In this document: positions 699 through 35,015 of the stretch, piece after piece
Layout of the letters: the number at the start of each line of letters is the position of its first letter
Position numbering within the stretch: the first letter of the stretch is position 1
Assembly (NCBI GenBank): GCA_036444275.1
Contig: JAZGAD010000043.1
Location: forward strand, 1 to 44,800
Direction of reading: 5' to 3'
Length of the DNA stretch: 44,800 nt
Origin: Candidatus Hydrothermarchaeales archaeon
Lineage (GTDB): Archaea > Hydrothermarchaeota > Hydrothermarchaeia > Hydrothermarchaeales > JAZGAD01
Notes under the pieces: model-generated
Database searches by the model: none
The model's input: only the letters and a program-made list of their open reading frames with translations
Told to the model about the DNA's origin: nothing
Program-made: the position numbers and the translations under genes

Positions 699-1025
699 AT
701 GGAACCCGGATATCAAAAAGCCTTTAGGACTTTCAAGAAAAATATCGAAAAAAGATTCAAAGAGCAGGTCAAAAAAGTAGTTCTATTTGGGAGTGCGGCA
801 AGGGGGGAAATGACAAGGGAATCTGATATTGATGTACTCATAGTTTTGGATAAAGTAGACGATAAAATAGAAAAAGAAATTTCGAATATTGCCTTTGATG
901 CGGGGGAATCAATACGGGTTATAATCGTGCCCATAATCTTGAGTAATAAATCCTACGAGGATATGCTCAATGAAAAATATCCTTTTATTATGAATATCGA
1001 GAGAGAGGGACTAGCAATTGCTTAA
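699..1025 (+). CDS. Minimal nucleotidyltransferase (MNT) antitoxin
   Basis: LFGSAARGE...SDIDVLIV Pol-beta NTase motif, 108 aa, overlaps the downstream HEPN gene. Confidence 0.92.
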   Translation: MEPGYQKAFRTFKKNIEKRFKEQVKKVVLFGSAARGEMTRESDIDVLIVLDKVDDKIEKEISNIAFDAGESIRVIIVPIILSNKSYEDMLNEKYPFIMNIEREGLAIA

Positions 1026-1401
1026 ATATTCTGAATTACACCTCAAGAAAGCATCAGAGTTTATTTCTGCAGCAGAGCATGATTTCCAAGATGGTTTTTA
1101 TAATGCTGCTGTAAGTCACGCTTATTATGCAATGCATCACTCGGCGAGGGCACTTCTACTTCTTATCAACGAATCTCCAAAAACTCATTCAGGGGTTATA
1201 AATGTCCTGTGGCAAAACATAGAGAAGTTGCATTTGTCCAAGGAAGAGATTCGGGCACTTTCGAGGGTTTTTGATAGAAGGATAAAAAGTGATTACGGGG
1301 TTGGTCTTGAGCCTCCAAGTGAAGAAGCCACAGGAGAGATTGTTGAGGAGGCCAAAAAGTTTCTTGATGATTCAATAGAAATCGTGGAAAATTGGAAATG
1401 A
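1018..1401 (+). CDS. HEPN domain protein (UPF0332/COG1895-like), partner of MNT
   Basis: AYYAMHHSARALL, PKTHSGVI and RIKSDY motifs; TTG start overlapping the MNT stop. Confidence 0.9.
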   Translation: MLKYSELHLKKASEFISAAEHDFQDGFYNAAVSHAYYAMHHSARALLLLINESPKTHSGVINVLWQNIEKLHLSKEEIRALSRVFDRRIKSDYGVGLEPPSEEATGEIVEEAKKFLDDSIEIVENWK

Positions 1402-7540: not shown

Positions 7541-8608
7541 GTGGAAGGGCTCGAAGATCCTGAAAGGAGATATCAGAATTCGGTGGAGAACTCCATCGAT
7601 GCCATTGTATCTGTGGATGAGCGAGGGGTTATAACGGTTTGGAATAGGGCAGCGGAAGAGATGTTCGGCTACTCCAAAGGCGAGATCTTTGGGAAGGAAG
7701 TCGTTACCATTATATCCGAGGAATACAGAGAGCAGCATAAAGAGGGATTCACGAGATTCCTGAGAACCGGTAGGGGCAAAATCATAGGGAAGATCTACGA
7801 GGGCGAGGGCTTGCGGAAGGACGGCTCGAGATTTCCTCTGGAGCTCTCACTATCAGCCCAGAGGGAGGGAAGTGGCTATTTCTTCACTAGCATAATTAGG
7901 GACGTTACAAAGCGGAAGAGCATGGAAGAGAAACTCAAACATTCCAACAAGCTCAGAGATCTATTCGTGGATATAATGCACCACGACCTAATGAATCCCA
8001 TCAGCATAATCAAGACATACGCAGAGGTCATGATGGATGAGGAGCGTGATAAAACTAAAAGACAGGAACTGCAGTCCATACTAAATATCACCGCAAGAAT
8101 GCAGGAACTGATTGAAAACGCTACTAAGTATGCAAAGCTTGGGAGTCAGAAGGAATTGGAGTTTGAAAGGGAGGATTTGGACGCGATTATTAAAGACGTA
8201 CTAGAGGAGTATGACTCACTACTCCAAGAAAAGAGAATGGAAGTTGTGTATACCTCAGGGGAATACCTCGCGGAGGTCAGCTCTTTTTTCAGAGACGTCA
8301 TTTCCAATCTCTTGTCGAATGCGATAAAATATAGCCCAAAGGAAAAGAAAGTTGTTATCGAGGTGCAGGACGAGGGCAGGGATTGGGAGATAAGGGTTAA
8401 AGATAATGGGCAGGGGATAGCAGATGACGACAAAGCAACGTTGTTTGACAGGTTCAAGCGTATAGAGAAGGGAGGCGTAAAAGGCACTGGTTTGGGTTTG
8501 GCGATAGTGAAGCGCATAGTGCGACTTCACCACGGAGAGGTCTGGATAGAGGACAATCTGGAAGGAGGGAGCATATTCTGTGTGAGGATATCCAAGCGCA
8601 GAGAATGA
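7541..8608 (+). CDS. Cytoplasmic PAS-domain sensor histidine kinase
   Basis: PAS/PAC (WNRAAEEMFGY, RKDGSRFPLEL), H-box HHDLMNP, N-box NLLSNAIKY, DNGQGI, GTGLGLAIV; no TM segment. Confidence 0.95.
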   Translation: MEGLEDPERRYQNSVENSIDAIVSVDERGVITVWNRAAEEMFGYSKGEIFGKEVVTIISEEYREQHKEGFTRFLRTGRGKIIGKIYEGEGLRKDGSRFPLELSLSAQREGSGYFFTSIIRDVTKRKSMEEKLKHSNKLRDLFVDIMHHDLMNPISIIKTYAEVMMDEERDKTKRQELQSILNITARMQELIENATKYAKLGSQKELEFEREDLDAIIKDVLEEYDSLLQEKRMEVVYTSGEYLAEVSSFFRDVISNLLSNAIKYSPKEKKVVIEVQDEGRDWEIRVKDNGQGIADDDKATLFDRFKRIEKGGVKGTGLGLAIVKRIVRLHHGEVWIEDNLEGGSIFCVRISKRRE

Positions 8609-10399: not shown

Positions 10400-11875
10400 A
10401 TGGCAAACGTAGTAGAGTCCGGAGATGGTTTTGAGATTGTAGAAGAGAACGGTGAGCTACTATATAATGTAAAGCAGGTTAAGTTCTCTGGGGGTGAGAA
10501 GGCGTTCCTCAAGGATGTTGAGGACAGGGCAATAAGGGACATAGACATAACTCCGACAGGCGCCGAGGATAAGTCAATGAGGGATGCTCTACTCAGCTCA
10601 TTGATTAAGATGATAGATGAGCTCGTAACCTTGAAGGGGAAGGAGGCAACGGGCTCCCTGAGCGATGAAAAGAAGCTTGCCATGGCTGAGCTCATAGCCA
10701 ACAACATGCTGGGCTACGGCGCCATCGATCCACTGCTCCAGGACGACGATCTTGAAGAGGTCATGATCATAGGTATTAATGTTCCAGTATACATTGCCCA
10801 TAGAAAGCACGGCACCTTACCTACCAACATCGTATTCGAAGAGGATACAGACATACAACGCATCATTGAGAGGATAGGCCGACACAGCGGCAGGAAAATA
10901 GATCTTGCGAACCCGCTTCTCGATGCCAGACTACCTGACGGCTCCCGGGTAAATGCCACACTTAGGCCAGCTTCCCTCGACGGTTCTACTGTAACCATCC
11001 GGAAGTTCCAAGCCGAGGCCTTAACCATAATTAATATCATTAAATTTGGGACGATGGGCTCGGAGGTCGGGGCATTCCTCTGGCTCGCAGTGGATGGATT
11101 CGGTGTGAAGCCGAGCAATATCATTGTATCGGGTGGCACAGGCTCTGGCAAGACCACGACGCTGAACTGTCTGGGCCTATTCGTGCCGAAAAAGGATCGG
11201 GTAATCACCATCGAGGACACTGCCGAGCTCCAGCTTCCATTGCAGCACAAGATAAGGCTCGAGACAAAACCTCCGAACCCAGAGGGAAAGGGAGCCTTGA
11301 CGTTCAACCAATTGCTCATCAATACCCTGAGGATGCGTCCAGATAGGCTCATCCTTGGTGAGGTGCGAGGGGAGGAGGCGGCGACCCTCTTCGTTGCCAT
11401 GAACACTGGTCACGACGGATGCATGGGCACAGTGCACGCGAACAGCGCTGATGAGACAATAACCAGATTGATAAATGCACCTATGAATGTGCCCATCATC
11501 ATGATGCCGGCTCTGGACCTCATCTTAATGCAGAACAGGATAACTGTGGGCGGCAAGGTTAAGAGGCGGATAACGGAGATAGCCGAGGTCTCGGGCGTAG
11601 AGATGGATAAGGTGCTATTGAACAGGGTATACACTCATGATCCGAAGACCGATGTCGTGAAGTCCACAGGCGTGCCTAGCAGGCTCATGCAGGATATAGC
11701 CGAGAAGGCCGGAGTGACTGTTAAGGATGTACATACTGAGTTGGAGAAGCGGCAGATACTCTTGGATTACTTGATCAGCAAGGATATAACAAAGCTTGAG
11801 GATGTCTACGGATGGGTGCAGGACTATTACTTAGACCCAGACAAAATTCTGGATAAGATATCGAAGGGCGTTTAA
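10400..11875 (+). CDS. CpaF/VirB11-family (type IV pilus/Tad) assembly ATPase
   Basis: [61 protein letters not shown]. Confidence 0.95.
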
Positions 11876-11881: not shown

Positions 11882-12649
11882 TTAGAACTCCCTGTATAGG
11901 TCTTCTGTCGGGTAGACGTTTATACCCGTTGCACCTATGTCAATGAGGCAGATCTTTTGGCTGTGCTTGGTGCCCCTCATCTTAACTATCTCCAGGCCTC
12001 TCACCCGCTCGCTTCCCTTCTTAATGTTGTACAAGGCGATGACACCTTGGCACATGAACTCCTCCACCCCGAAGCGCGATATGCCTCCCTGTCCCTCAGG
12101 CATTTCAGTGAGCAATAGGGACGTGCATCCAAGCTCGTTGAGGAGGTTGCTCAAGCCGAGCACTTCTTGACGGATCTCGTAGATGTCCTCCATCTGGAGC
12201 GACAGAGATGCAAGGGAGTCGATAACCAATCGCTTGGCATTAAGGCTCTCCACCTCTCTAGTTATTATGTCCCTCACGAGGTCTACAGAGAACTTTCGGG
12301 GTGTGAACTCAAGGAGGTTGCTATCCTTTTGTTTCTCTAGATCTTCTGGTGAGATGTATTTCGTACCCTGGGCTATGCTCGCCTTCTGAGGTATCATCCC
12401 TATTATCTTGATCTTGCTCATGTCCCAGCCATACCCTGAGAAGTTCCGCACAATGTCGCGGGGGCGTTCCTCTAGGGTAATGTATATGCCGTTCTCGTTG
12501 TAGTCTGTGAATCCCTTGTAGAGGTATTGCATGGCAAAGGTGCTCTTTCCGGCGCCCGGTCCGCCAGCCACCAGTATCGTGTAACCTTTGGGTATCCCAC
12601 CATCGAGCATCTCGTCGAAGCCAGCTATTCCAGTTAACGTCTTCTCCAT
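11882..12649 (-). CDS. Single-domain KaiC/RAD55-family ATPase
   Basis: TGIAGFDEMLDGGIP, GGPGAGKS, TLEE, VIDS, GVEEF, KMRGT. Confidence 0.93.
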   Translation of the reverse strand: MEKTLTGIAGFDEMLDGGIPKGYTILVAGGPGAGKSTFAMQYLYKGFTDYNENGIYITLEERPRDIVRNFSGYGWDMSKIKIIGMIPQKASIAQGTKYISPEDLEKQKDSNLLEFTPRKFSVDLVRDIITREVESLNAKRLVIDSLASLSLQMEDIYEIRQEVLGLSNLLNELGCTSLLLTEMPEGQGGISRFGVEEFMCQGVIALYNIKKGSERVRGLEIVKMRGTKHSQKICLIDIGATGINVYPTEDLYREF

Positions 12650-12664: not shown

Positions 12665-15343
12665 TCAGCGTATCACTAGCTTGGCTACCAACGGCTTTGT
12701 GGCTGCCATTTGGTTATATATAGTATCCTCCTTGCTTTTAAATTCTTCCAAACCCTCATTGGCCAATGCCAGGACCTCGTCTTTGGGCTGGTTCTTGGCT
12801 GCGTCGTACCAATCATCGACGAGAGTGATCACATAGGCGAATCTCTTGACTTTCCATTTATGGGCATCGAGCACGCCTTCCTTGGGGCATTCAAGGCTGT
12901 ACCTCTTGCAGATCTCTGCCATTGACTCCTTGTAGCCCTGTATGGTTGCATAGTCGCGCACGTCATAGAAGAATGCCTCTCTGTTCACAGGCTCGGCTGT
13001 AAATGCTATAGCTTTCTCTGGCCTCTCAACGAGGATGAGAAATTGTGTGGCAACCTGGGCCCCTGCAGCGCCCAGTGAGTCGTCGAACCTGAACTTGCCT
13101 TGGGGCAGGCTGAATATAATGCCCCCGCCTAGCTTGTTGCCTACAACGATGTGGTCTGGGAACATTTTAGAGAAATCTGCGCTCCCGACATGCCACGCCT
13201 TCCTTATGCCACCTATCGTCTGCACTTGGTTCCACTCCACGTTGATAGCTTTGTTCAAACTCTCTACGTCCCCGCCCACGGCAACGCCGGAGTCGTAGTC
13301 GCCTCTAAGCACCCAGTCCTTTACGATCTCGTCTGGGTTTCTGAAGTTTATCGGCTGGGCATAGCCCTGCATTTGGAGATTGTTCACCTCAATGGCGTCT
13401 ATAAAATAAGGCTTGTCGGCAAAGATGCCGAAGAACTCCTCTCCTTCTACGTCGTAACCCTGCTTGCGGTCAGCAGTCTGGAAATCCCAACCCTCTGTAC
13501 CTAGAAGGAGGAAGCCCGTTTCCTCGTCAGCTATGATTATATGGTGCTCTAATCCGTTCTCGTCGTGGATTGCCATGCTGGAGAAGGGCACTAAATTCTC
13601 AGCGTCGTGATCGGCGTATCCGAGGGTCGAGCCGGTGAGCCAGTCGGTCTTGCTATCCACCCGGTCGTTGAATACCAAAAGGTCGTGGTCGTTGAGCTTG
13701 TCGTACAGGCGATAGTAGGAGCGGTCGAGGTTCAGATCGATTTTGTAATAGGGGTTCTCTATGATAAGCCAGCCCTTTTTTGGTGCCTTGGAATCGATCC
13801 TATTTTTCACATCTATAAACGCCTCGACTCCCTTGCCGCCCACATCCACGGTCTTAGAGAGTTTGAGGGAGTAAACATCCGTAGTTTCAGCCTCCGCGGC
13901 CCCGGCTCCTGCTCCGGCTCCTGCGCCCCCTCTCAAGAAGAAAAAACCGACTGCCGCAATGAGCAATACTAAGACCCCCATGATGGCATACTTCGACACA
14001 CCAACCTTTTTGACGACAACCTCCTCTGACACTGCAGTCGCAGCTGCGGCTACGGTTGCGGTTGCAGCGGCTTCGGCCTCGGCTAATGCTCTCTCTTCGC
14101 CTAATATCTTGAATCCCCTCTCGATATCGAAGAGGTACCATGTAGGCGTCGTCTTCATGCCCTTAGCGTGTTTCACTCTGAATTTGCGCTTGAGTGGCGG
14201 CCCCTCTTCGAATTCCATTTCTAGAACTGCATCTGCCATGGCGCGCAGGGCCATCACGGTCTGTTCGTCATGCATTTCCTCTTGCAGGGTGTAGAGCACG
14301 AAGCCGTACTCAGTCTTAGCCCTCGAGGATAGTACCCCTACGAACTTCTTTATTTCGCCAACAGGTGCATGGAGGAAGAGAGTTGAGAGAGAATCAAAGA
14401 ATATCCGCATGGGCTTGCCGATCATGCCCGCCGCTTTGGCAAGGTGGATATTTATCAGGTTGAGGTTGGCTGGGTTGTCGATGTGTAAGCCCTTATCGTA
14501 TTTCATGCCCGTGGAGTAGGAGTAAATATCTATGAAGAGGAATTGGCTCGCCTCATAGGTGTCGAGGTCAAATCCATCCTCCCTCAGCTTATCCTTGATC
14601 TCCTGGGGGCTCCGCTCAGTGGTTATGTAGACGATGCTCTCCCCCTTTTTGAGATACTCCTTCATTAGGTTCAAGCAGTATTCGTATTTTCCAACTCCGG
14701 GGGGGCCGGTGAGAAGGGCGGTATAGTTCTTAGGGAAAGGTATTTTCAATGTTACTGCCTTTGCCGGGGCTTTCTTTTTTCCAACGGGTTTTTCGACCAC
14801 GTCGACCTCTTCTTCTGGCGGAGGAAGGGCCGTTTTCTTTTCCCTAGCTTGTTCTTTGGCAGCAGTATACATCATCTCATATGTAGCGTTTCCGGGATCC
14901 AGCTTCAAGGCAGTATCAAAGCTTTCAACAGCCTTATCGAATTCTTCCAGAAGACCCAGCACCATTCCTTTATGGTACCACAGCTCGCCATTCTTAGGAT
15001 CTATTCCCAAGGATTTGTCGAAACCCTCGATAGACGCCCTTACTTTCTCATTGTCGTCAATAGCAATACCCCAATCCTTCAAGGCTAAAGCCTTGTGAAA
15101 CCACGCTTTAGGGTTTCTTGGTTCAAGCTTCAAGGCTTCGTCAAAACTCACTACAGCCTTATCGAATTTCTTTGAATTGTAGAATTCGTTCCCTTCTGCG
15201 ATTAAGGAGTCTGCGGTTTTTTCTGCCGCTTTGGGAGCCTCTTCTGGGACTTTCGTCTCAGTGGCTTCGATTTTTGAGCCGCATGTCAAACAAAATGGAG
15301 CACCTTCAGGAACTTCTTCTTTGCATTCTGGGCACTTCGCCAT
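12665..15343 (-). CDS. Membrane-anchored Zn ribbon-TPR-KaiC/RAD55-like ATPase with large C-terminal external domain
   Basis: CPEC..FCLTCG ribbon, about three TPRs, GPPGVGKY/TTE/IFFDS ATPase-like domain, TM YAIMGVLVLLIAAVGFFFL, then ~400 aa soluble domain. ATG 15343 with GGTGG RBS is preferred over 15379. Confidence 0.85.
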   Translation of the reverse strand: MAKCPECKEEVPEGAPFCLTCGSKIEATETKVPEEAPKAAEKTADSLIAEGNEFYNSKKFDKAVVSFDEALKLEPRNPKAWFHKALALKDWGIAIDDNEKVRASIEGFDKSLGIDPKNGELWYHKGMVLGLLEEFDKAVESFDTALKLDPGNATYEMMYTAAKEQAREKKTALPPPEEEVDVVEKPVGKKKAPAKAVTLKIPFPKNYTALLTGPPGVGKYEYCLNLMKEYLKKGESIVYITTERSPQEIKDKLREDGFDLDTYEASQFLFIDIYSYSTGMKYDKGLHIDNPANLNLINIHLAKAAGMIGKPMRIFFDSLSTLFLHAPVGEIKKFVGVLSSRAKTEYGFVLYTLQEEMHDEQTVMALRAMADAVLEMEFEEGPPLKRKFRVKHAKGMKTTPTWYLFDIERGFKILGEERALAEAEAAATATVAAAATAVSEEVVVKKVGVSKYAIMGVLVLLIAAVGFFFLRGGAGAGAGAGAAEAETTDVYSLKLSKTVDVGGKGVEAFIDVKNRIDSKAPKKGWLIIENPYYKIDLNLDRSYYRLYDKLNDHDLLVFNDRVDSKTDWLTGSTLGYADHDAENLVPFSSMAIHDENGLEHHIIIADEETGFLLLGTEGWDFQTADRKQGYDVEGEEFFGIFADKPYFIDAIEVNNLQMQGYAQPINFRNPDEIVKDWVLRGDYDSGVAVGGDVESLNKAINVEWNQVQTIGGIRKAWHVGSADFSKMFPDHIVVGNKLGGGIIFSLPQGKFRFDDSLGAAGAQVATQFLILVERPEKAIAFTAEPVNREAFFYDVRDYATIQGYKESMAEICKRYSLECPKEGVLDAHKWKVKRFAYVITLVDDWYDAAKNQPKDEVLALANEGLEEFKSKEDTIYNQMAATKPLVAKLVIR

Positions 15344-15458
15344 AATAATACCACCGTTATTGTTGTTTTGGGGGTCCATATTTATATAAGTTTTATTAAA
15401 GAATAAGAGAGTAAGAATAGGAAAAAATTAAATTAAAAAAAGAATGAGGAGCCGGTAT

Positions 15459-16244
15459 ATGGGTGAGTCGATTGTGGTGGCCTCTGGAAAAGGCGGCGTA
15501 GGCAAGACAAACATTTCCATCAATCTTGGAGCTGCTATGGCTCAACTCGGCAAAAGGGTTACCGTTCTAGATGCCGATATTGAGATGGCCAATGTGGAGC
15601 TGCGCCTTAGATTGGAGAAGGGGGGTAAGAGTCTCCACGATGTGCTGGCAGGGAATGCAGACATATTCGATGCGGTTTACGACGGCCCAGCTGGATTGAA
15701 GGTTGTGCCATGTGGGACATCCTTAGAAGGCCTCAGAGCCGCTGACCCGAGTAAGCTGGGTGAGGTTTTGGGTGAGTTATTGAAGACGACGGATATCCTT
15801 GTTATCGATGCCCCAGCGGGCTTAGGAACTTCTATGGGGGCGATGGCGGTAGCTCATGAGATGCTTATAGTAGTTAACCCCGAGATCGCGTCCATTGCAG
15901 ATGCCATGAAAGTGAAGCAGGTCTTCCAGGAGTTGGATGGCCACTTACTCGGGATAGTGGTGAATAGGGCCACTTACCACGAAGAGGACTTGAAGATCCA
16001 CGAGATCGAGGCGCTTCTAGATGCCGAGGTCATCTCTGTCGTACCTGAAGATAGGGCCATGAAGCAAGCTGCGGCCTACGGAAGCCCATTGGTTATATCG
16101 GCTCCATATTCCCCAGCGGCCAGGGCGATCAAAAAACTAGCTGAAAATATAATCACCAATGAATTCGGCCCGAAGGAGCCTCCAAAAGAGGACATGGTTA
16201 GCAGGATCATATTCGGCTTATTCGGGGGAAGGAGCAAGACTTAA
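15459..16244 (+). CDS. minD: Archaeal MinD-family ATPase
   Basis: SGKGGVGKT deviant Walker A, LDADIEMAN, IDAPAG, C-terminal amphipathic MVSRIIFGLF. ATG 15459 follows a GAGGAG RBS. Confidence 0.88.
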   Translation: MGESIVVASGKGGVGKTNISINLGAAMAQLGKRVTVLDADIEMANVELRLRLEKGGKSLHDVLAGNADIFDAVYDGPAGLKVVPCGTSLEGLRAADPSKLGEVLGELLKTTDILVIDAPAGLGTSMGAMAVAHEMLIVVNPEIASIADAMKVKQVFQELDGHLLGIVVNRATYHEEDLKIHEIEALLDAEVISVVPEDRAMKQAAAYGSPLVISAPYSPAARAIKKLAENIITNEFGPKEPPKEDMVSRIIFGLFGGRSKT

Positions 16245-16245: not shown

Positions 16246-17256
16246 TCAGCCTTCGTAAAATTTACCCATGATGTTTTGGAGTTCGTCCTTCTCAAGCTCC
16301 CGGACCTTGTACTTTTCCATCAACTTCTTCCGCATCGCATCCCTTTCGGCCTTGAGTTCAGAGGAGGCATCTTTGATGCTCGCCGCTTCTTGTGGAGTTA
16401 TCTCCCCGCGGGCGATGCCTTCCTGCACCTTTAAAACGCTGGTCAAGACATCGTCGGGCATTATATAGCGCTTGTCGCCCCTGTTATCAACAGTCTCTAT
16501 CATTACATTTTTGTCAAGGAACATTTTCTCGGTTTCCAGAATCTTGTTTCGCTGCTCCTCTTGGGGGTATCTCTGATTTATCGTGTTAATCGAAATAGAT
16601 CCACTTCCCTGTTTGACTAGGTCTACGATTTCTGATATCGAGGAATCTTTCATGCTTAGAGCGCTGATTATAGCCTGCTCATTCAACATGCTGCTGATTA
16701 CTTCATTCCTCATTATCATCCTTACATGCTGAGGTACTGTACATTTTATTCCATCAGTAGAAACCACGTTTTTCTTGACCAGTTCTCCGAGGGATTGATC
16801 GAATCCGGTACCGTAAGCGGCTTTCAGGGCCTCGATTTCACCGGTTTCGCTGAACAGAATCATCTTGAGAAGCCGCAGTGTGTTCTCTGGCGCGGTCTGG
16901 AGGAATACTGAGATATGGTTGATGTCGATGGCCCTTTCAACGAGGGTGGCGTCAGGGTTCTTCACAAAGATGCTGAAGAGATTCCCTTCACTGTACTTGT
17001 AGAATTCAATCCGCGATACCTTATTCACCATTTCAGGGACCTTATCAATTACTCCCCTGCCATATTCAGGTAGTCCGAACTTCAGGGCAAGGATGGCGCC
17101 CACGGGTTTGCCGTCCCTCCAGAGGACGTGGACTGTTTTCAGGTTGAAGACGAAGTCCAATCTTCCAGTCAGATGTCCCTTCTGTATGTGATCTACGGCG
17201 TGTTTTGGGCTGTTGAATACTTGATCCAATTTAGAACCTGAGGGCAGGTTAAGCAT
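16246..17256 (-). CDS. DUF2226-like protein
   Basis: N-terminal LNLPSG...LTG.L...VLWRDGKPVGA...IEFYKYSE...NPDA and C-terminal RKKLMEKYKVRELEKDELQNIM recall DUF2226 proteins; recognised by eye only. Confidence 0.55.
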   Translation of the reverse strand: MLNLPSGSKLDQVFNSPKHAVDHIQKGHLTGRLDFVFNLKTVHVLWRDGKPVGAILALKFGLPEYGRGVIDKVPEMVNKVSRIEFYKYSEGNLFSIFVKNPDATLVERAIDINHISVFLQTAPENTLRLLKMILFSETGEIEALKAAYGTGFDQSLGELVKKNVVSTDGIKCTVPQHVRMIMRNEVISSMLNEQAIISALSMKDSSISEIVDLVKQGSGSISINTINQRYPQEEQRNKILETEKMFLDKNVMIETVDNRGDKRYIMPDDVLTSVLKVQEGIARGEITPQEAASIKDASSELKAERDAMRKKLMEKYKVRELEKDELQNIMGKFYEG

Positions 17257-17449: not shown

Positions 17450-20400
17450 TTGGTGGCGAAGCTAGGGGTAGTGTTGAATTACAGTGTAGTTATCTTCGTC
17501 CTTGTGGCTTTTCTGGCTCTGGCGGGGAGCGTTAATGCTACAGTGACGAGTGGGACCCATGTAATACTACATCTCGATGGAGATGGGTTTGATTTCTCTA
17601 CAAATACTACTGTCGGGTTGGGGAGTGCGGATATTAGGTATGGCGAGATAGATCACCTCATACCCATTAGTGATAAAATAAAGGACCTAGGATCTGCTCC
17701 CTTTGAATCTTATACAACAATCGATTTAACTGGCAGTGTAGATCAGGTATGGGTTGAAGAAGCCGGACATACATACGGACTTGAGACAGCCGAGGGTCAT
17801 TTTGCGAAGGTTTATGTCGTGTATATTGATGCGTTTGAGGTTGAACTTAATTGGACTTATCAGGATGATGGCACCAATAACTTCGGTGGCGGTGAAGGCG
17901 GCGTTGCTGCTAACCTTGTAGTGAATAATACGCCCGACGATGCCTGCACAACCGGCGATGCCTACTATACAACTATAACCGCGGCAGTTGAAGCCTCGGC
18001 AAACGGAGGAAACATAACGGTCTGCCCAGGCACCTACATTGATAACGTTTTTATTTCAGGTATAACAGACCTGGACATCCTTTCTTACTCTCAAAATCCA
18101 TCTGATACAATTGTTACGGCTCTCGATCCGGCCATGCATGTTTTTGACATCACTAACGAGTTTGGGGCTGCTGGGGGCGTGAAAATCGCTGGGTTCACTG
18201 TGACAGGCGTAACCCAAGGACATGGGGAACCAGACCCCTCTGGCAGAAGCGCTTTTGCCCTCCTTGAGCAGGGTGATGCACACATTAATAATAACATCAT
18301 CACAGGCAACATGTATGGGATTGAACTGTACCAGTCCAATAACAACACTATAGAAAACAACACGGTCATCTCGAACACAGACCATGGGATCGAACTTGAC
18401 GAATCCACTGGAAATGATATTTATAACAACACGATCAGCTCGAATACAAACATTGGGATCGAACTTCACTTCAGTAATGACAATAACATTTATGACAACT
18501 TTATAACCTCAAGCACAGGCACTGGGATTCTCGTAGAGCTCGGTGGCAGTGATAACAGAATTTATAACAACCTCTTCAACAACCCCACCAACTTTGATGT
18601 CACTTCTGCTGGAATCAACAAATGGAACACTACGAATAGTTCGGGACCGAACATCGTTGGAGGTCCATATTTAGGTGGTAACGTCTGGGCTAAGCAGGAT
18701 GGCACCGGCTTAAGTCAGATCTGCGACGATGTGGATAGCGACAAGATATGTGATTCTCCCCACATACTGGAATCTGGGAACGTAGATTATCTACCACTGG
18801 CACTAGACTTCGATGGCGATGGCGTTTTAGATGGCTTTGATAAGTGTCCTAACACTCCCCAAGGGGCTGCAGTTGATGAGCGTGGATGTCCGGAAGGGTC
18901 CTATCACCTGGATGACAGTGATGGCGACGGCATGGATGATCAATTTGAGAAGGACTTCTGGTGCCTGGATCCTAACATCGCTGATGCGGACGCCGACCCT
19001 GACAACGACACCTTCTCGAACATCAAGGAGTTCTATGGCTACTCCGACCCGTGTTACGGGGGCAGCATCCCGACGGGAGGCATAGGTCCACCGCCTGAGT
19101 TCGGCATGGAAAACTTTTCGTGGTTCGGCAAGACGAACACCAACATCACCTTCAACGAGACTAACGTGACCATTAGTGTTTGGAACGGAACTCACAACCT
19201 GGTCGTTAACGGGACCTTAAACAACACACGCCTATGCAATGATACCGTCGGCGGCTCCAACTTTTACGTTTACCACTTCGAAGCAGAGATCCTCACTGCC
19301 TCAAACCAGAAGATAGGGGGAATGGGTGCCGGGATTATGAACTTTACGAATAAAAACAAGTCCATCTCGGAAGGCACAGACATCCTCGTGGCCTCGCCCA
19401 TGGGCCCAGGGGCACAACTTGCGTTTACGCCGTATGGCTCCATGCTGGGGATAGATCCGTCTTTCAATGGTAGCATTACAATAGATGTTTCCTCCATACC
19501 TCTAGCTCCAACGGAACCGGGTGAGAAGAATTGCACCAAAGTGGGCGATTTCAACATCACCAGTGGAAACCTTACGGGCTTCACCAATATAATAGCGGGG
19601 GGCCTCGGGTTCAACTTCTTTGGTAAGGGATTTAAATTCGGCGGCAATATGTCTTTCGACCCCAACCTAAGCATTGATGAAAGGAAAAAAATGGAGAATT
19701 GGAATACGAGTATCGTGTTCGGTGACAACGTGAACTTCGTCGGAATACCCGATTATATGCCGTTTGGCGCTATAATCCCCAATGGCTCAACCATAGGGGC
19801 CATGAAATACTTCGGCAAGATAACAGGCGGGTACGGCGGCTTCTTCGATGGCGATTTCATAGGAGACGATATCCACTTCGAACCGTTTGTCACGATGTAT
19901 AATGGCTCGAGGATATTCAACGACGTCAGAGTCGGTCAGAATGCGACTATCGGGAACTTTACAGAGATAGGCAACTTCACAGAGATCGGTCCCCTCGTCG
20001 AGTTCGACCAATTCGTCCGTGTCGGCATGTTTGCGGATATAATGGCGGGCGCCAAGATCAAGGAAAACGCGTCCATCGGTTTTGGAGCGTTAATAGGGAA
20101 CAACTCCTTTGTTGGAAAGCTCGTCAATATAATGGATAATGCGACCATTGGCAAGTCGGTCAGGATCTACGACGACGCGAACGTCGGCAAGTACACCATC
20201 ATCGAGAACTTCGCAGAGATATTCAACAACTCTATACTCGGCGAAAACGTCACTATCGGGCAGTATGCGAAGATCCGACGGGATGCGAAGATCTGGGACG
20301 GCTCTATCGTTGGCAACAAGTCCAGTGTGGGTGAAGGCTCGGAGGTATATGAGAGCAGGCTCTATGACTACGTGTCCATCGGCCCGAACATTATCTTGAA

Positions 20401-22060
20401 TAAGACGGAGGCCTGGAACAGCATCATAAACTACACGATAAACGCCGTGAACTTCTCCAACGAGGAGGTCTTCTTGAACCTGACGGTTATCGACTCTAGC
20501 GGCTACATCAGCAACAAGCCTAGCGCTAACGGGAGCATCCATCTCGCGGAGGAAGGGGTCAAAGTGAACTTCACCAATCTAAACGAGTTGCGCAGCCTCT
20601 CGAGCAACATCGTCGTCCACGATCTAATCACGGACGCCAACACTAGCACCTTCTCAGCAGTCATCAAAGATGGCAAGATGAACGTCACCAAGGATGGTGT
20701 ACTCCAGGAGCTGGATGTCAACGCTGGTATTATCACGATCTTCAGCGACACGTCCATGGGTATCGACGTGGGTATGAACTTCACCGACACTATGGACGCA
20801 AATATGGGTGTCGCCGTCATTACGATAAACCCCGGTGGAGTGGCGCTTCCGAGCAAGGCACAAGGCACCAACTTCACCCACCTCTCCGCGCCAGGTGCGA
20901 ACAAGAGCAACATGAATGCGCGCCTATGCATGAAGTTCCCATCGAACCTCGACACCAGCACCGTCAAGATACACTACTTCAACGAGACGGGTGGTGCATG
21001 GGAGGACTATACGACAGAGATCGTAGGCAGTAAGGCATGTGCCAATACCACTCACTTCTCAGTCTATGGAATAAGCGGAGCTGTACAACAGCAACAACAA
21101 CCATCTGGAGGTGGAGGTGGTGCCGCACCTGCCACAGATAAATCGGCTGATGCTACGGAGGTTACGCCTACTGATGCTGATGTAGCCGCGCAGGTGGAGG
21201 CCTCTTTCACGTCGATAGCGGCGGGTAAGAAGGGTACTATATCGGTTCCTGATACAGAGAACATGCCTTTGACGGAGATAGCGATAAAGGTGAAGAACAA
21301 GGTCTCTAATGTTAAGGTGGTGGTTAAATCCCTTACCTCGAAGCCAGCGAATATTACCACGAATGTTAGTGGCGAGGTCCTAAGGTACCTCAAGGTGGAG
21401 CACGAGAACATTGAGGATGCTGACATAGATAATGTGACTTTCAAGTTCAAGGTGGAGAAGACGTGGATGACTGAGAAGAATATAGACCCAGCTGCGGTTG
21501 TGTTGAATAGGTATAGTGAGGACACGTGGAATGCGCTGACTACGACGAAGGTGAGTGAGGATTCCAACTATACCTATTATTCGGCTGAGTCGCCTGGACT
21601 CTCGGTCTTCGCAATATCTGGATCGGTAATTGAAGCCGAGGTCACCTCAACTCCAACGCCTACGCCCACACCTACTACTGCACCTCCGGCTACTACTGCG
21701 CCTCCGGCTACTACTGCGCCTCCAGTTGTGACTACTGTTTCGCCGACTACTACGCTTCCGCCCACGACTCCAGCTCCTACACCAGTGACTACTCCTACGC
21801 CAACGCCTACGCCCAAGCCCCTGTACAAGAGGCTCGGGTTCGTCTTGCTAGTGCTCATCGTGCTGTTAGCGGGCATAGTCTATGTTCTGGATAGGCAGGG
21901 CAGGATAAGTGTACGGGAGGAGCTGGAGAAGCTTAGGGAGAAGTATGGACGTGGGGAGAAAGAAGAAAAGGAAGAGATGGAGCCAGTAGGGGAAAGGGAA
22001 GAAGAGAAGGTAGAAGAGGTAGAGCCGGAGAAGGAAGGAGAAGAAAATCCAGGAACTTAA
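17450..22060 (+). CDS. Giant cell-surface glycoprotein (NosD/CASH beta-helix, Asp-rich Ca-binding repeats, hexapeptide repeats, PGF-pre-PGF, P/T linker, TM, acidic tail)
   Basis: Signal peptide; YGIEL..SNNNTIENN repeats; DFDGDGVLDGFDKCP and DSDGDGMDD motifs; hexapeptide repeats ~19900-20430; KFKVEKTW...SPGLSVFAI; C-terminal TM; many NxS/T sequons. Start TTG 17450 or GTG 17453. Confidence 0.88.
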   Translation: MVAKLGVVLNYSVVIFVLVAFLALAGSVNATVTSGTHVILHLDGDGFDFSTNTTVGLGSADIRYGEIDHLIPISDKIKDLGSAPFESYTTIDLTGSVDQVWVEEAGHTYGLETAEGHFAKVYVVYIDAFEVELNWTYQDDGTNNFGGGEGGVAANLVVNNTPDDACTTGDAYYTTITAAVEASANGGNITVCPGTYIDNVFISGITDLDILSYSQNPSDTIVTALDPAMHVFDITNEFGAAGGVKIAGFTVTGVTQGHGEPDPSGRSAFALLEQGDAHINNNIITGNMYGIELYQSNNNTIENNTVISNTDHGIELDESTGNDIYNNTISSNTNIGIELHFSNDNNIYDNFITSSTGTGILVELGGSDNRIYNNLFNNPTNFDVTSAGINKWNTTNSSGPNIVGGPYLGGNVWAKQDGTGLSQICDDVDSDKICDSPHILESGNVDYLPLALDFDGDGVLDGFDKCPNTPQGAAVDERGCPEGSYHLDDSDGDGMDDQFEKDFWCLDPNIADADADPDNDTFSNIKEFYGYSDPCYGGSIPTGGIGPPPEFGMENFSWFGKTNTNITFNETNVTISVWNGTHNLVVNGTLNNTRLCNDTVGGSNFYVYHFEAEILTASNQKIGGMGAGIMNFTNKNKSISEGTDILVASPMGPGAQLAFTPYGSMLGIDPSFNGSITIDVSSIPLAPTEPGEKNCTKVGDFNITSGNLTGFTNIIAGGLGFNFFGKGFKFGGNMSFDPNLSIDERKKMENWNTSIVFGDNVNFVGIPDYMPFGAIIPNGSTIGAMKYFGKITGGYGGFFDGDFIGDDIHFEPFVTMYNGSRIFNDVRVGQNATIGNFTEIGNFTEIGPLVEFDQFVRVGMFADIMAGAKIKENASIGFGALIGNNSFVGKLVNIMDNATIGKSVRIYDDANVGKYTIIENFAEIFNNSILGENVTIGQYAKIRRDAKIWDGSIVGNKSSVGEGSEVYESRLYDYVSIGPNIILNKTEAWNSIINYTINAVNFSNEEVFLNLTVIDSSGYISNKPSANGSIHLAEEGVKVNFTNLNELRSLSSNIVVHDLITDANTSTFSAVIKDGKMNVTKDGVLQELDVNAGIITIFSDTSMGIDVGMNFTDTMDANMGVAVITINPGGVALPSKAQGTNFTHLSAPGANKSNMNARLCMKFPSNLDTSTVKIHYFNETGGAWEDYTTEIVGSKACANTTHFSVYGISGAVQQQQQPSGGGGGAAPATDKSADATEVTPTDADVAAQVEASFTSIAAGKKGTISVPDTENMPLTEIAIKVKNKVSNVKVVVKSLTSKPANITTNVSGEVLRYLKVEHENIEDADIDNVTFKFKVEKTWMTEKNIDPAAVVLNRYSEDTWNALTTTKVSEDSNYTYYSAESPGLSVFAISGSVIEAEVTSTPTPTPTPTTAPPATTAPPATTAPPVVTTVSPTTTLPPTTPAPTPVTTPTPTPTPKPLYKRLGFVLLVLIVLLAGIVYVLDRQGRISVREELEKLREKYGRGEKEEKEEMEPVGEREEEKVEEVEPEKEGEENPGT
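21100..21630 (+). repeat. Copy 1 of a dispersed ~0.5 kb PGF-pre-PGF coding cassette
   Basis: Identical tracts 21246-21292, 21398-21438 and 21527-21593 match copy 2 at a constant offset of 23058; outer boundaries approximate. Confidence 0.9.
21672..21725 (+). repeat. 18 bp tandem repeat x3 encoding the TTAPP(A/V) linker
   Basis: CTACTACTGC(A/G)CCTCC(G/A)G three times in tandem. Confidence 0.9.
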
Positions 22061-23225: not shown

Positions 23226-25553
23226 TTGGAGATCGACATCCTCAACGCAAGCGACGAGCAACTTCTAGAGATCAGTGAGAAAGGACAGCTCTCGCTCAGC
23301 CTAGAGGAGATGAAGGCGATCAAGGAGCACTTCTCCAAGCTCGGCAGAAAACCAACAGACGTTGAACTCGAGACATTTGCTCAGACATGGAGCGAGCACT
23401 GCGTCCACAAGACTTTCAGGGGCAGCATCGTAACCGAGGACGGCGAGATAGACAATCTCTTGAAGAGCACAGTAGCGAGAGCCACAGAAGAATTGAAGCC
23501 GGAGTGGTGTTTCTCTGTCTTCGAGGACAACGCAGGCATCGTCGACTTCGAGGGCGACACGGCTATAGCCTTCAAGGTGGAGACGCATAACCATCCCTCT
23601 GCTCTGGAGCCCTTCGGAGGAGCTGCGACAGGCATAGGCGGCGTCATCAGAGACATATTGGGGGTATGGGGCGAGCCCATAGCAAATACTGATGTGCTCT
23701 GCTTCGGCCCTTTAGACTATCCATATGAGAAGCTTCCAAGGGGTGTGAAGCACCCTAGGTTCATCTATACCTACGTGGTCTCAGGCATAGGCAACTACGG
23801 CAACAACATGGGTATACCAACTGTGAACGGCGCTGTAGTCTTCGACGAGGGCTACATCGGCAATCCCCTTGTATTCTGCGGGACCATCGGAATAGTGCCT
23901 AAGAGTCGGTATGCTAGGAACGTGAAGGCAGGGGATATAGTTCTGCTTGCTGGCGGAAAAACAGGTAGAGATGGGATACACGGCGTCACATTCGCATCTG
24001 CTGAGCTCCACGAGGAATCTCAGGATGTCTCAGCCACAGCTGTGCAGATAGGCGACCCGATAGAGGAGGAGAAAATAAAGCGTGCTGTCCTCCAGATAAG
24101 GGACGAAGAGCTAGGCTCAGCCATAACAGACCTGGGCGGAGGAGGCCTATCATCGGCTATGGGGGAGATGTGCCACAGCTACCACCTAGGAGCGAGGATT
24201 CACCTGGATAGGGTGTCCCTGAAGTACCCAAATATGCTTCCATGGGAGATATGGACCTCTGAATCGCAGGAGCGCATGCTCCTCTGCATACCCAAGGAAA
24301 ACCTGGATAGAGCACTAGAAATCTTTCGCAGCGAAGAAGTGGAAGCAACGCCCCTAGGGGAATTCATCGAAGAGGAAAAACTGTGGATAGAATTCGAGGG
24401 CGCGGCAGTCGCCGAGCTGGATATACCTTTTCTGTTTAACGTGCCCTGTATCAAGAGGCGGGCAGAGTGGAAGAAGCCCAGTTTTGAAGAACCAGATTTC
24501 CTACCAAAAGACCTCACTCAAGAGCTACTCTCAGTTATTGCCATGCCAAATATTGCGAGCAAAGAGGCTGTGATAAGAACATATGACCACGAGGTCAAGG
24601 CAGCAACAATCCTGAAGCCCCTTCAGGGCGTGGAATGCGATTCTCCTGGCGATGCCGCAGTATTAAAACCTCTTCCAGGTTCTTGGCGGGGTATATCGAT
24701 ATCTAACGGAATAAACACCTATGGACTGATCGATCCCTACTGGATGGCGGCCAGTGCCATCGACGAGGCGATAAGGAACAACGTCGCAGTGGGCGGGCGC
24801 AGGATAGCACTGCTGGACAACTTCTGCTGGGGCAATCCAGAGCGCAGCGACCGCCTAGGTGGGCTAGTGAGAGCTGCTGAAGCATGCTATGATATTGCAA
24901 AGAGCTATGGAACACCCTTCATATCAGGCAAAGACAGCCTGTACAACGAATCCTCTTTCGGCCCAGTGCTGCCGACACTCTTAATCTCTGCATTGGGGAT
25001 AGTGCCAGATGTCAGGAAGGCAGTATCCATGGATGTGAAGGAAGCGGGGGATTGTATATACCTCCTTGGTGAAACAAGAAATGAACTGGGAGGATCACAT
25101 TACTACCGGCTCAAAGGCTACGTCGGCAACCGCGTCCCGATAGTCAAAGCCGATGAGGCAAAGAAGATTATGGATGGGCTGCTAAAGGCTATGGACGCAG
25201 GGATTGTAAAAGCGTGCCACGACCTATCTGAAGGCGGCCTAGCGGTAGCAGCGGCAGAGATGGCGTTTGCAGGCGGGGTAGGCATGGAGATCAATATAAC
25301 TGAGGCTCCAACTGCAGGCAGGATGAGAGAGGATTACCTGCTCTTCTCTGAATCAAATAGCAGATTCCTTGTGGAAGTGGGAGATAGTAATGCAGGGGAA
25401 TTCGAGAAGTTTATGAGCGGAAGCTATGCCAAGGTAGGCACGACGATAGAGGAGGAAAAGCTCAGGATCATCATGGGTAATGGCAGACCAATTTCAGCCA
25501 GCTTATCTGAGTTGAAAAACGCCTGGAAGGGCGGATTGGAGGGAAAGAAGTGA
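23226..25553 (+). CDS. purL: FGAM synthase subunit PurL
   Basis: TWSEHC.HK, FKVETHNHPS, GRDGIHG, DLGGGG, SESQERM, HDLSEGGL. Confidence 0.99.
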   Translation: MEIDILNASDEQLLEISEKGQLSLSLEEMKAIKEHFSKLGRKPTDVELETFAQTWSEHCVHKTFRGSIVTEDGEIDNLLKSTVARATEELKPEWCFSVFEDNAGIVDFEGDTAIAFKVETHNHPSALEPFGGAATGIGGVIRDILGVWGEPIANTDVLCFGPLDYPYEKLPRGVKHPRFIYTYVVSGIGNYGNNMGIPTVNGAVVFDEGYIGNPLVFCGTIGIVPKSRYARNVKAGDIVLLAGGKTGRDGIHGVTFASAELHEESQDVSATAVQIGDPIEEEKIKRAVLQIRDEELGSAITDLGGGGLSSAMGEMCHSYHLGARIHLDRVSLKYPNMLPWEIWTSESQERMLLCIPKENLDRALEIFRSEEVEATPLGEFIEEEKLWIEFEGAAVAELDIPFLFNVPCIKRRAEWKKPSFEEPDFLPKDLTQELLSVIAMPNIASKEAVIRTYDHEVKAATILKPLQGVECDSPGDAAVLKPLPGSWRGISISNGINTYGLIDPYWMAASAIDEAIRNNVAVGGRRIALLDNFCWGNPERSDRLGGLVRAAEACYDIAKSYGTPFISGKDSLYNESSFGPVLPTLLISALGIVPDVRKAVSMDVKEAGDCIYLLGETRNELGGSHYYRLKGYVGNRVPIVKADEAKKIMDGLLKAMDAGIVKACHDLSEGGLAVAAAEMAFAGGVGMEINITEAPTAGRMREDYLLFSESNSRFLVEVGDSNAGEFEKFMSGSYAKVGTTIEEEKLRIIMGNGRPISASLSELKNAWKGGLEGKK

Positions 25554-32641: not shown

Positions 32642-32828
32642 AATTCTCGATTTCTTGTAATTATTAAGCGAGAGGGGAGTGCATTTTTCTAATAGTGTGC
32701 AATGCCCAATGGACTTGATTTTTTAACTGATTGCATCTTCATTTACATTCACTAAGTTTTAAATAGGAACATTACCAATGGTCGTAAAAGAGGTAACGAA
32801 TGTTATATGCTAAAAAGGAGGTGAGTGA

Positions 32829-33095
32829 ATGATAGATATAATTGCCTTATTGCTCGGGGCGGTATACGGCTATGTTAAACCCGGGAAAGAGGAGAAGAAG
32901 GTAATCCTGAAGAAGGGAGCCAAGATTGGGGCAGTTCTAGGTGCAGTGCTCGCTGTTGCAAACCTGCTGGTAGGCGGTGGCCTACTCATAGCGACCGCAA
33001 ACCTGTTTGGAACGGTCATAGCGATAGTGTACCTAACGGTAATGTTCGTGATTGGCACGTTGGCCGGAGATTGGCTAGAGGTCAAATTCAAGTAA
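32829..33095 (+). CDS. Small conserved archaeal membrane protein (3 TM)
   Basis: GGAGGTGA RBS; GAVYGYVKPGKEEK and FVIGTLAGDWLE; hydrophobic. Confidence 0.75.
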   Translation: MIDIIALLLGAVYGYVKPGKEEKKVILKKGAKIGAVLGAVLAVANLLVGGGLLIATANLFGTVIAIVYLTVMFVIGTLAGDWLEVKFK

Positions 33096-33113
33096 GGGAA
33101 CTTCGATGAGCCG

Positions 33114-33155
33114 GCGCTCGTGGATATTGCAGAGCGCTTTTTTTTCTTTATTTTT
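33114..33155 (+). terminator. GC hairpin plus long T tract
   Basis: GCGCTC-N12-GAGCGC followed by TTTTTTTTCTTTATTTTT, 18 nt after the stop at 33095. Confidence 0.7.
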
Positions 33156-33208
33156 CGGAACACTAGATTGCAGTCGGTACAATTCTTTATCATATCCAGG
33201 TATAAGGT

Positions 33209-33700
33209 ATGAATATAAAAACTATTGAAACACTCCTGAGAGAAGTTCAGACAAGGTACGATAAAGACCCAAAGGGCTGGAATTTCGTTGTTGGACCGGG
33301 TGAGAAGTACTTTGACATCATGATTTCAAAGGGAGCGAAGGTGTGGCAGTTGAAGCTGGACACGTTATACAAGCCCAATCCTGTCGGCTTTGGATCGCTA
33401 ATAGACAAGCGCGAGGTGCCTGCCCTAGATATAAGCGGTCCTTCCTTCGGATATCGCCCTCTCTCGGATGAACAGATTGAGGCACTCCTCACCCAGAGTC
33501 TCGATTTAGAGGAGATCATAGAGATCGAGCCGATGTCGTTGAACAAGATAAAGAGCCCAATAGTAGCACAGGGCCCGATACTTCATACCTCTAAGCCCAT
33601 GAACTATGTCTCAGAGAAGCAGAAGGCGCTTGACTTGAAATTAAGGCGGAAGATTGATGACCTCTTGGAAAAGTCAGGGGTTACGACGTCCTACGTTTAA
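33209..33700 (+). CDS. Hypothetical protein
   Basis: 163 aa ORF with protein-like composition; no recognised catalytic motif. Confidence 0.7.
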   Translation: MNIKTIETLLREVQTRYDKDPKGWNFVVGPGEKYFDIMISKGAKVWQLKLDTLYKPNPVGFGSLIDKREVPALDISGPSFGYRPLSDEQIEALLTQSLDLEEIIEIEPMSLNKIKSPIVAQGPILHTSKPMNYVSEKQKALDLKLRRKIDDLLEKSGVTTSYV

Positions 33701-33711
33701 TTGGTGATACT

Positions 33712-33930
33712 ATGAAGGCTATGGGAAGGTACTCTTTCCTTCGGCTGGGTGAGAGATGCAGACCTAGGTGTAGAGGCGCTGAAAATCCTCAAGGGCTTTA
33801 AGGGAACCAGTCTGAAAAGAGATTTTGGGATTTCAAGCAGGTCAGTGGAGCTGGGAGTTGGGGGTCATAGGTGAAGACGAGTATGCAGTGCTAGTGAGAT
33901 AACTCCATACTGCTGCCGCATTCGCCTCTT
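33712..33930 (+). pseudogene. Probable decayed Ku (NHEJ DNA end-binding) gene remnant
   Basis: GGTGA RBS and ATG. Across frameshifts it reads MKA/WEGTLSFGWV, C/DLGVEALKILKGFK and VIGEDEYAVLVR*, colinear with prokaryotic Ku motifs. 3' boundary approximate. Confidence 0.5.
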
Positions 33931-35011: not shown

Positions 35012-35015
35012 TATA

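Follow-up and report, generated by a model that had tools for sequence, protein, structure and literature searches.

A decayed KaiC domain tethered by one predicted helix to a mutarotase-like ectodomain: a possible link between the cell surface and a KaiC/ATPase module in Hydrothermarchaeales

Introduction

Proteins of the KaiC family have been proposed as the main signalling hubs of archaeal cells, but little is known of how an external signal gets to them. Could such a route be encoded in a single polypeptide? The question is raised by a gene on the minus strand (12665..15343) of a 44,800-nucleotide stretch of DNA from Candidatus Hydrothermarchaeales archaeon (assembly GCA_036444275.1, contig JAZGAD010000043.1, positions 1 to 44,800; hereafter the window, meaning the whole stretch that was analysed), the product of which joins a KaiC domain with degenerate catalytic motifs, a single predicted transmembrane helix and a large extracytoplasmic domain. 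The reading favored here, to which a probability of about 0.4 is given, is that the gene encodes an outside-in coupler between the cell surface and a KaiC/ATPase module in the cytoplasm. If true, this would provide a concrete and testable input route, in which an extracellular domain is connected by one helix to a dead KaiC and the latter is translated together with a live one.

A KaiC fold with decayed catalytic motifs that is kept under selection and fused to signalling or membrane modules is referred to as an iKaiC. In mBio in 2017, Makarova, Galperin and Koonin are said to have put forward KaiC as a 'signal transduction hub', with inactivated KaiC-like domains present in signalling proteins of archaea. 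PMC5847659 uses the term iKaiC, and in PMC4858521 the ATPases of archaeal type IV pili are predicted to be regulated by ATPases of the KaiC family and the MinD type. The idea that signalling proteins contain inactivated KaiC domains is already known, as is the association of KaiC, ATPase and MinD proteins; apparently new here are the extracellular domain family and its one-helix tether to a dead KaiC. A literature search returned nothing specific on this ectodomain family, its fold, its attachment to a dead KaiC by one helix, the swappable modules or the link to beta-helix proteins, and the 2017 KaiC-hub paper or the supplements of PMC4858521 might list it.

The gene and the soundness of its reading frame

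The open reading frame occupies 12665..15379 on the minus strand and specifies 904 residues without interruption (open reading frame list and translation); all residue numbers given here refer to this frame, which begins at an in-frame ATG at 15379. The start at 15343 (M13, MAKCPEC), which yields 892 residues, is probably to be preferred, because homologues begin there (MA.CP.C), the database entry P0002, a copy of the gene product, has 892 residues, and the upstream signals are suitably placed, with a TATA-like box just upstream of 15379 and GGTGGT 7-12 nt before 15343.

An earlier interpretation made from the letters alone (the sequence-only reading) had described the product as a zinc ribbon, TPR repeats (~14860-15210), a crippled KaiC-like RecA-fold domain (~14100-14750), an Ala-rich stalk, one transmembrane helix with N-in/C-out orientation, a hinge and some 400 residues of unrecognised sequence. 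Its coordinates agree to within a few bases with the open reading frame list, the translation, Pfam matches and hydropathy, and the elements it named are borne out by the results presented below. It had also asked whether an assembly chimera could account for the gene, that is, a mis-joined frame with halves from different genes. The chance of this is practically negligible: the order zinc ribbon, TPR, KaiC, transmembrane helix and ectodomain recurs in 15 database clusters, one of them on a 1.9-Mb contig; in 33 of 96 clusters, drawn from several sources, KaiC precedes this ectodomain in one fused protein; and in the uninterrupted frame the junction is bridged by a 1018-nt contig of run X1, which spans 13579-14590 and thus passes from the ectodomain across the membrane segment into KaiC. 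With 22 other letters and a 6-nt insert, this contig comes from a related strain, though possibly from the same sample; the X1 strain differs at ~2% of positions across the gene.

A KaiC domain with decayed motifs, kept under selection

The inner domain (14117..14737, minus strand, residues 215-421) is a KaiC/RadA-like RecA-fold domain that matches PF06745 with E 1.2e-14 (54.7 bits, cut-off 26.6) and Pfam DUF7504 with E 5.1e-10 (40.5 bits, cut-off 27). Its closest solved relatives are the single-domain archaeal KaiC-like proteins SSO2452 (2w0m, E 9.1e-10) and PH0284 (2dr3, E 6e-9), with which it aligns from the P-loop to Walker B, and it shares 24% identity (E 5e-8) with the 255-residue canonical KaiC encoded next to it. 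DUF7504 and DUF7090, both uncharacterised archaeal KaiC-like families, cover neither the transmembrane helix nor the ectodomain.

The motifs needed for catalysis have decayed. The inner domain has GPPGVGKY as Walker A, TTER and HAKG where the neighbouring KaiC has GPGAGKST, LEER and KMRG, and only Walker B (FFDS) is retained among these; SSO2452 and PH0284 likewise have GTGKT and EE, in contrast to GVGKY and ER. The K.RG motif is the Arg finger in KaiC-type ATPases. When the KaiC domain was cut from 32 fused relatives and aligned, GK[S/T] was found in none of them, the Walker lysine itself was also gone in six (GxGEK), the EE pair of catalytic glutamates after strand 2 was retained in two, and most read HHAKG in place of the finger. 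The Walker B Asp and its flanking blocks (ITTE.SP, FDS.S.LF) are present in all 32, and in two relatives (L025 and L029) the KaiC domain is 64-65% identical over 243-244 residues, against 52-54% for the ectodomain. The decay is thus family-wide, as the motifs GKY, TTER and HAKG had led the sequence-only reading to suspect for this one protein, and, because the domain is at the same time conserved at least as well as the ectodomain, a pseudo-ATPase under purifying selection appears to be a fair description of it. Lost catalytic motifs together with such conservation suggest a non-hydrolysing docking or regulatory subunit, and the fusion to a zinc ribbon, TPR repeats, a transmembrane helix and an ectodomain gives the protein the features of an iKaiC.

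Two further modules precede the KaiC domain on the cytoplasmic side. The N-terminal zinc ribbon (15272..15337, minus strand, residues 15-36; Pfam and motif regular expression) has its four Cys at residues 16, 19, 30 and 33; its matches to Pfam DZR, Zn_Ribbon_1 and Zn_ribbon_3 (E 2.7e-4 to 1.6e-3) are all below threshold, and a regular expression finds CxxC...CxxC in 15 of 15 TPR+KaiC relatives. The TPR repeats (14870..15202, minus strand, residues ~60-170) are matched by TPR_1 (E 1.2e-15), TPR_2 (E 2.5e-13) and TPR_11 (E 8.3e-12).

A single helix and its probable orientation

Between the KaiC domain and the ectodomain the translation reads, on the minus strand, as an Ala-rich linker (14024..14098, residues 428-452), a single transmembrane helix (13934..13990, residues 464-482) and a Gly-Ala hinge just outside the membrane (13889..13933, residues 483-497) that contains GAGAGAGAGA at residues 485-494; the proposed stalk and hinge are both legible in it. 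In the related strain of run X1 the 6-nt insertion is in frame at 14039, inside the Ala-rich linker. Residues 464-482 form the only Kyte-Doolittle peak above 1.4 (maximum 2.65), flanked by three Lys on the N side and one Arg on the C side.

The same arrangement holds throughout the family. A single hydrophobic segment stands directly before the ectodomain in all 87 members with sufficient N-terminal sequence, and Lys plus Arg within 15 residues of each flank are more numerous on the N side in 73 of these, equal in 10 and fewer in four (means 3.78 and 1.16), counts to which no statistical test was applied as the members are kin. The N-terminal modules of the family (KaiC, TPR, zinc ribbon, TIR, CBS) are all of cytoplasmic types, and in 13 of 96 members the helix and the ectodomain are separated by a PKD domain. 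A type-II (N-in/C-out) single-pass topology is supported by the one helix, this charge bias, the cytoplasmic N-terminal modules and the PKD and Big_1 domains on the other side. Within the ectodomain, Cys 824 and Cys 831 are lost jointly in several homologues, as would fit a disulfide. N-glycosylation sequons are absent from the ectodomain of the query and, at 0.41 per 100 residues of ectodomain against 0.34 in the N-terminal parts, are uninformative across the family.

The ectodomain and its predicted fold

The extracytoplasmic domain (12668..13897, minus strand, residues 495-904, ~410 residues) belongs to an unnamed archaeal family. In agreement with the earlier description of an unrecognised C-terminal sequence, residues 495-904 match no Pfam family at E<=10 and no NCBIfam model. 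An AlphaFold2 model built with 52 homologues is mostly beta and scores highly (predicted local distance difference test, pLDDT, 94.9; predicted template modelling score, pTM, 0.94); it shows a long beta-hairpin, a core (12782-13792, minus strand, residues 530-866, 337 residues) and, after the core, C-terminal helices. Modelled separately, the core scores equally well (pLDDT 94.7, pTM 0.93).

Searched with Foldseek against the PDB, the whole ectodomain finds GH2 beta-galactosidases, GH38 alpha-mannosidases and an aldose 1-epimerase-like protein at probability 1.00, with a best E value of 3.7e-7 (the best values over the Foldseek results are 3.7e-7 and 8.7e-7), TM-scores of 0.31-0.45 and root-mean-square deviations of up to 20 A against the large enzymes. 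The description of one match, 5cd6, names a TPR domain only, and the other matches listed contain mutarotase-like domains. With the core alone the TM-scores, normalised by query and by target, are 0.52/0.54 for 3mwx and 0.51/0.53 for 4bze (Bacillus subtilis GalM), followed by two further stand-alone mutarotase-type proteins, 3nre (0.48/0.54) and 3k25 (0.47/0.54), and by the mutarotase-like domains of GH36, GH2, GH38 and GH129 enzymes. The value of about 0.5 or more taken to mark the mutarotase fold is reached by 3mwx and 4bze on the predicted model. A galactose-mutarotase-like supersandwich fold of the core, which the sequence-only reading had guessed from the first residues of the domain, is therefore supported at the level of predicted structure (pLDDT ~95, core TM-scores of 0.51-0.54).

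No corresponding signal is found in sequence. A search of the PDB with the ectodomain profile gave two matches at chance level (E 0.3 and 2), an alignment of the family against Escherichia coli GalM by hhalign gave a probability of 0.1, which does not place the domain among the aldose 1-epimerases, and a search of the ESM Atlas returned no usable match. Across 52 ectodomain sequences, 16 residues (Asp, Asn, Glu, His, Ser, Arg, Gln, Tyr, Trp) are invariant. H730 is an invariant His. Aldose epimerases and the glycosidases of families GH2, GH36 and GH38 hold sugars with a mutarotase-like fold, which in large glycosidases is usually non-catalytic and sugar-holding.

Distribution and architectures of the ectodomain family

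A full scan of 1.84 billion representative sequences found 18 proteins only, all 45-58% identical to the query, and word-indexed searches found 61 and 69 clusters; combined and aligned, these amount to 96 clusters. All are archaeal and at least 45% identical to the query, with source names of Hydrothermarchaeales/-aceae, Methanophagaceae (ANME-1), 'Methanomicrobia' and 'Euryarchaeota' archaea. Among 38 genomes of the phylum to which the window belongs, 18 have a match, including 8 of 21 high-quality genomes; the genome of the window itself (61 contigs, 81% complete) has one copy. The family represents a new and highly conserved extracellular domain, shared by Hydrothermarchaeota-like and ANME-1-like archaea, for which the fold predicts sugar binding.

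The architectures of the 96 clusters were classed with a phmmer and regular expression script that used the domains found here as queries. KaiC lies upstream of the helix in 33 clusters, 15 of which also have the zinc ribbon and TPR repeats; 13 have a PKD domain after the helix (with zinc ribbon, TPR or CBS inside), one has a TIR domain, about 40 consist of a short tail and the anchor only, and nine are fragments. In one member (P0043, L031 5744-8206) a Big_1 domain is inserted within the ectodomain and splits the match into residues 8-316 and 323-405, and the homologue in L009 (G032:C155) has one in-frame TGA within the match.

A quick maximum-likelihood tree was computed from 93 ectodomains, leaving out three rows with fewer than 330 aligned residues and the duplicate P0002. 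In this unrooted tree the KaiC forms make up two well-supported groups that the midpoint root separates, forms with PKD and those with the anchor only fall together with 86% support, and the TIR form is nested among KaiC+TPR forms. Judged from these placements, the inner module has been exchanged on a constant ectodomain, and swapping of cytoplasmic modules of this kind is the pattern that would be expected of a receptor family.

Gene neighbourhood and candidate partners

Fifteen nucleotides downstream of the gene lies the proposed partner, a canonical single-domain KaiC of 255 residues (11882..12649, minus strand; PF06745 E 8.6e-65), the GKST, EE (E60, E61), D and KMRG motifs of which are invariant in nine orthologues. 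Convergent with it is the gene of a 491-residue ATPase of the PilB/ArlI family (T2SSE; 10400..11875, plus strand; PF00437 E 2e-48). These two conserved neighbours, the most important ones for a mechanism, had escaped the sequence-only reading. Canonical KaiC and T2SSE ATPase are both adjacent in 10 of the 13 KaiC-fused loci (the window, L022, L024, L025, L026, L029, L048, L049, L052, and L061; L022 and L052 probably represent one species, and relatives counted here are kin and not independent samples), and in none of 12 loci where the ectodomain is not joined to KaiC. Taken singly, the canonical KaiC is adjacent in 11 of the 13; in L023 the contig ends after it, and in L053 right after the KaiC-fused gene itself. 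The order and strand of the three genes vary while their adjacency is kept, and the gene overlaps that of KaiC by 1-4 nt in L024, L026, L048, and L049. Copies of the ATPase that are at least 59% identical occur only in genomes with the KaiC-fused form (G013-G017, G019, and G027). A complex prediction for the canonical KaiC and the inner domain (residues 205-445), run without controls, gave scores of 0.01 and 0.00 against a mark of 0.32 and is counted neither for nor against a contact.

On the other side, and divergent from the gene, an archaeal MinD-type ATPase is encoded (15444..16244, plus strand; TIGR01969 E 1.1e-90, above cut-off) which may be an accessory; a MinD homologue also adjoins the gene in L026, L028, and L049. 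Convergent with the MinD gene is that of a 336-residue protein (16246-17256, minus strand) without a Pfam or NCBIfam family. It does not significantly resemble a ~337-residue neighbour in L027 (E 15), nor the proteins of 242-252 residues found at the same position beside MinD in L026, L028, and L049 (E 0.034 with the L028 copy).

The PilB-like ATPase stands beside the gene without a visible platform or filament. No gene for a T2SSF platform protein occurs in the window, and in the 81%-complete genome T2SSF is found on contig C28 only; with the ATPase present, T2SSF confined to C28 and pilins not searched for, the locus does not qualify as an archaeal type IV filament system. Contig C28 carries at ~31000-35900 an open reading frame of 1055 residues with two tandem T2SSE domains, next to two T2SSF genes, and double T2SSE ATPases of ~1000-1190 residues occur across the phylum.

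Unfused members of the family have other neighbours. In 10 of 13 non-KaiC loci (L009 included) a large NosD/right-handed beta-helix surface protein is encoded immediately next to the ectodomain gene; the N-termini of these proteins are signal-like, and each has a PGF-CTERM-like tail or else CWB2 domains. Only one of the 13 KaiC-fused loci, that of the window, has such a protein near the gene, at a distance of 2 kb: a NosD/right-handed beta-helix protein of 1536 residues (17450..22060, plus strand; Pfam NosD E 2.8e-37), a possible extracellular partner with a signal-like N-terminus, hexapeptide-repeat regions, a Thr/Pro linker, a C-terminal transmembrane segment and an acidic tail. Its link to the KaiC-fused gene is weak. 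The beta-helix neighbours of the family belong to uncultured archaea with poorly understood envelopes.

The flanks of the window include housekeeping genes (hisF, a CDF transporter, purL/purQ), and the gene appears to be vertically co-inherited with conserved synteny rather than lodged in a variable island. The distance of two genes between the ectodomain gene and purL/purQ that is seen in the window (purL 23226-25553) recurs in L027 and L031, from two genomes of this phylum, which suggests an old shared chromosomal position. A PMT_2-like membrane protein was considered as a further conserved partner and rejected: it is found upstream of the gene in L022, L025, and L029, within one family (f4) only, and here it lies on another contig.

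What the protein may do

The mechanism proposed starts from the architecture, the topology indicators, the predicted fold, the decayed motifs of a domain under purifying selection and the conserved gene neighbourhood described above, to which it adds, as we infer them, a ligand, contacts among the three ATPase-like proteins and a direction of information flow. The supersandwich of the ectodomain would hold a conserved glycan that belongs to the envelope of the cell itself, perhaps one carried by a beta-helix surface glycoprotein. The helix and the Ala-rich linker would convey the state of the ectodomain, occupied or not, to the iKaiC, which would shift its pairing with the co-translated canonical KaiC; the latter would in turn gate the PilB/ArlI-type ATPase encoded next to it, in a manner resembling the modulation of ArlI by ArlH in the archaellum, and the MinD-type ATPase may position the assembly. 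A receptor of this kind, with the pseudo-ATPase as its putative output as in the sequence-only reading, is plausible. A bolder claim, and a doubtful one, is that the whole ectodomain family forms a new class of archaeal surface receptors which read glycans and bear interchangeable inner modules, the KaiC form controlling a platform-free pair of KaiC and PilB-like proteins; if that were true, it would represent a new trans-envelope signalling or force-generating machine by which the cell surface is plugged into the KaiC network.

Several observations weigh against an outside-in coupler. About 40 of the 96 members are bare anchored ectodomains with no recognisable cytoplasmic domain, and the ectodomain must therefore do something by itself, independently of any signal output. 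One KaiC-fused locus, L028, has neither the KaiC nor the T2SSE partner within 14 kb, and the locus in the window has no T2SSF platform protein to go with the PilB-like ATPase. Sugar binding is argued from the modelled fold, with no sequence-level link to aldose epimerases behind it. An enzyme would likewise be compatible with the high conservation of the ectodomain and its invariant Asp, Glu, His, Arg, and Gln; such conservation is less readily explained by a ligand from the environment than by a catalytic site or an unvarying partner, and this, like the beta-helix surface proteins that adjoin the unfused forms, speaks against a purely sensory role.

In a first rival explanation, a passive anchor or stator, which senses nothing and tethers an assembly of KaiC and PilB-type ATPase to the membrane and the surface layer, would merge the roles of ArlH on the inside and ArlF/ArlG on the outside, with information or force flowing inside-out. 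It is unlikely, yet it would account for the conserved triad with canonical KaiC and T2SSE ATPase, for a locus without a platform protein, for the very high conservation of the ectodomain (as expected of a fixed structural partner) and for the surface proteins beside the unfused members; the TIR and CBS swaps on the same ectodomain are hard to explain in these terms, filament genes are absent nearby (pilins were not searched for), and the beta-helix protein is close to a KaiC-fused gene in one locus only. A somewhat less probable alternative makes the ectodomain a membrane-anchored surface enzyme, in which a catalytic supersandwich, epimerase-like or glycan-processing, acts on envelope glycans or beta-helix glycoproteins and the inner modules regulate or localise it. 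That the proteins closest to the core by TM-score are stand-alone mutarotase-fold proteins would fit this, as would the 16 invariant, mostly polar residues, the many members reduced to anchor and ectodomain, and glycosyltransferase neighbours (GT2 and GT4 in L028, a weak PMT_2-like match in L022). These neighbours are lineage-specific, however, and Pfam, the PDB profile and hhalign show no similarity of the ectodomain to any enzyme family, while in large glycosidases the fold usually serves to hold sugar and not to catalyse.

The single member with an N-terminal TIR domain, nested in the KaiC+TPR clade and matching ThsB-like and other TIR defence models, raises the further idea of an antiviral surface sentinel that detects viruses or envelope damage and triggers TIR in that relative and the KaiC/ATPase module here. 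This is highly improbable, since PADLOC yields only weak P-loop matches for the proteins of the window (21.8, 26.4, and 18.2 bits to mad8), and the housekeeping flanks and vertical co-inheritance in conserved synteny are not those of a variable island.

Comparison with known systems

The protein shares with known iKaiC signalling proteins a decayed KaiC domain fused to signalling modules and canonical KaiC paralogues encoded nearby, and differs from them in that one transmembrane helix ties the dead KaiC to a large domain outside the cell; this domain, from an unnamed family, also occurs with TIR, with CBS or with no inner domain at all. The genome contains at least 12 KaiC-family matches.

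The ArlH/ArlI (FlaH/FlaI) motor of the archaellum offers a parallel for the locus: in PMC5019145 and PMC4858521, a single-domain KaiC-like protein is encoded with a T2SSE ATPase, and a modulating role towards T2SSE-type ATPases is ascribed to ATPases of the KaiC-like and MinD types. The proteins themselves are not archaellum components by their scores, as both KaiCs here fall below the NCBIfam ArlH model NF052589 (30.1 and 33.8 bits, cut-off 215) and the ATPase reaches 304.5 bits on the FlaI model, the cut-off of which is 550. Neither the locus nor the window has ArlJ/TadC, archaellins, arl genes or T2SSF, and ArlH is soluble whereas the present protein is membrane-anchored and bears an ectodomain. 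CirA, which acts on motility and cell shape in Haloferax volcanii, is likewise a KaiC-family regulator encoded beside type IV filament ATPase genes and, according to excerpts of PMC10983859, a KaiC-like regulator in vivo and not a part of the motor. In the same excerpts CirA differs from the present protein in being soluble, in its functionally important intact Walker A and in its effect on arl transcript levels, and has neither anchor nor ectodomain.

With galactose mutarotase/aldose 1-epimerase and the corresponding domains of GH2, GH36, and GH38 enzymes (4bze, 3mwx, 3nre, 1dp0, 2xn0, and 7uft) the ectodomain shares the beta-supersandwich fold, at Foldseek probability 1.00. The alignments contain 8-10% identity with no signal from Pfam, the PDB profile or hhalign, and the present domain is distinguished by its N-terminal hairpin, its C-terminal helices, its membrane anchor and its predicted extracellular location.

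Other features of the window

A soluble histidine kinase with PAS, HisKA and HATPase domains (7541-8608, plus strand) is encoded two genes from the PilB-like ATPase, and a histidine kinase is also found beside the ATPase in L024. Toward the ends of the window, a stand-alone HEPN-domain protein (1018-1401, plus strand; E 9.7e-23) is encoded on one side, and on the other (40053-44800, plus strand) a PrcB_C protein is followed by an S8 subtilase and NosD protein of more than 1405 residues that runs off the window. Two helicases are encoded back to back, one with DEAD, Helicase_C, and MrfA Zn-binding domains (27952-30435, minus strand) and the other a Hel308-type archaeal helicase (30473-32641, plus strand).

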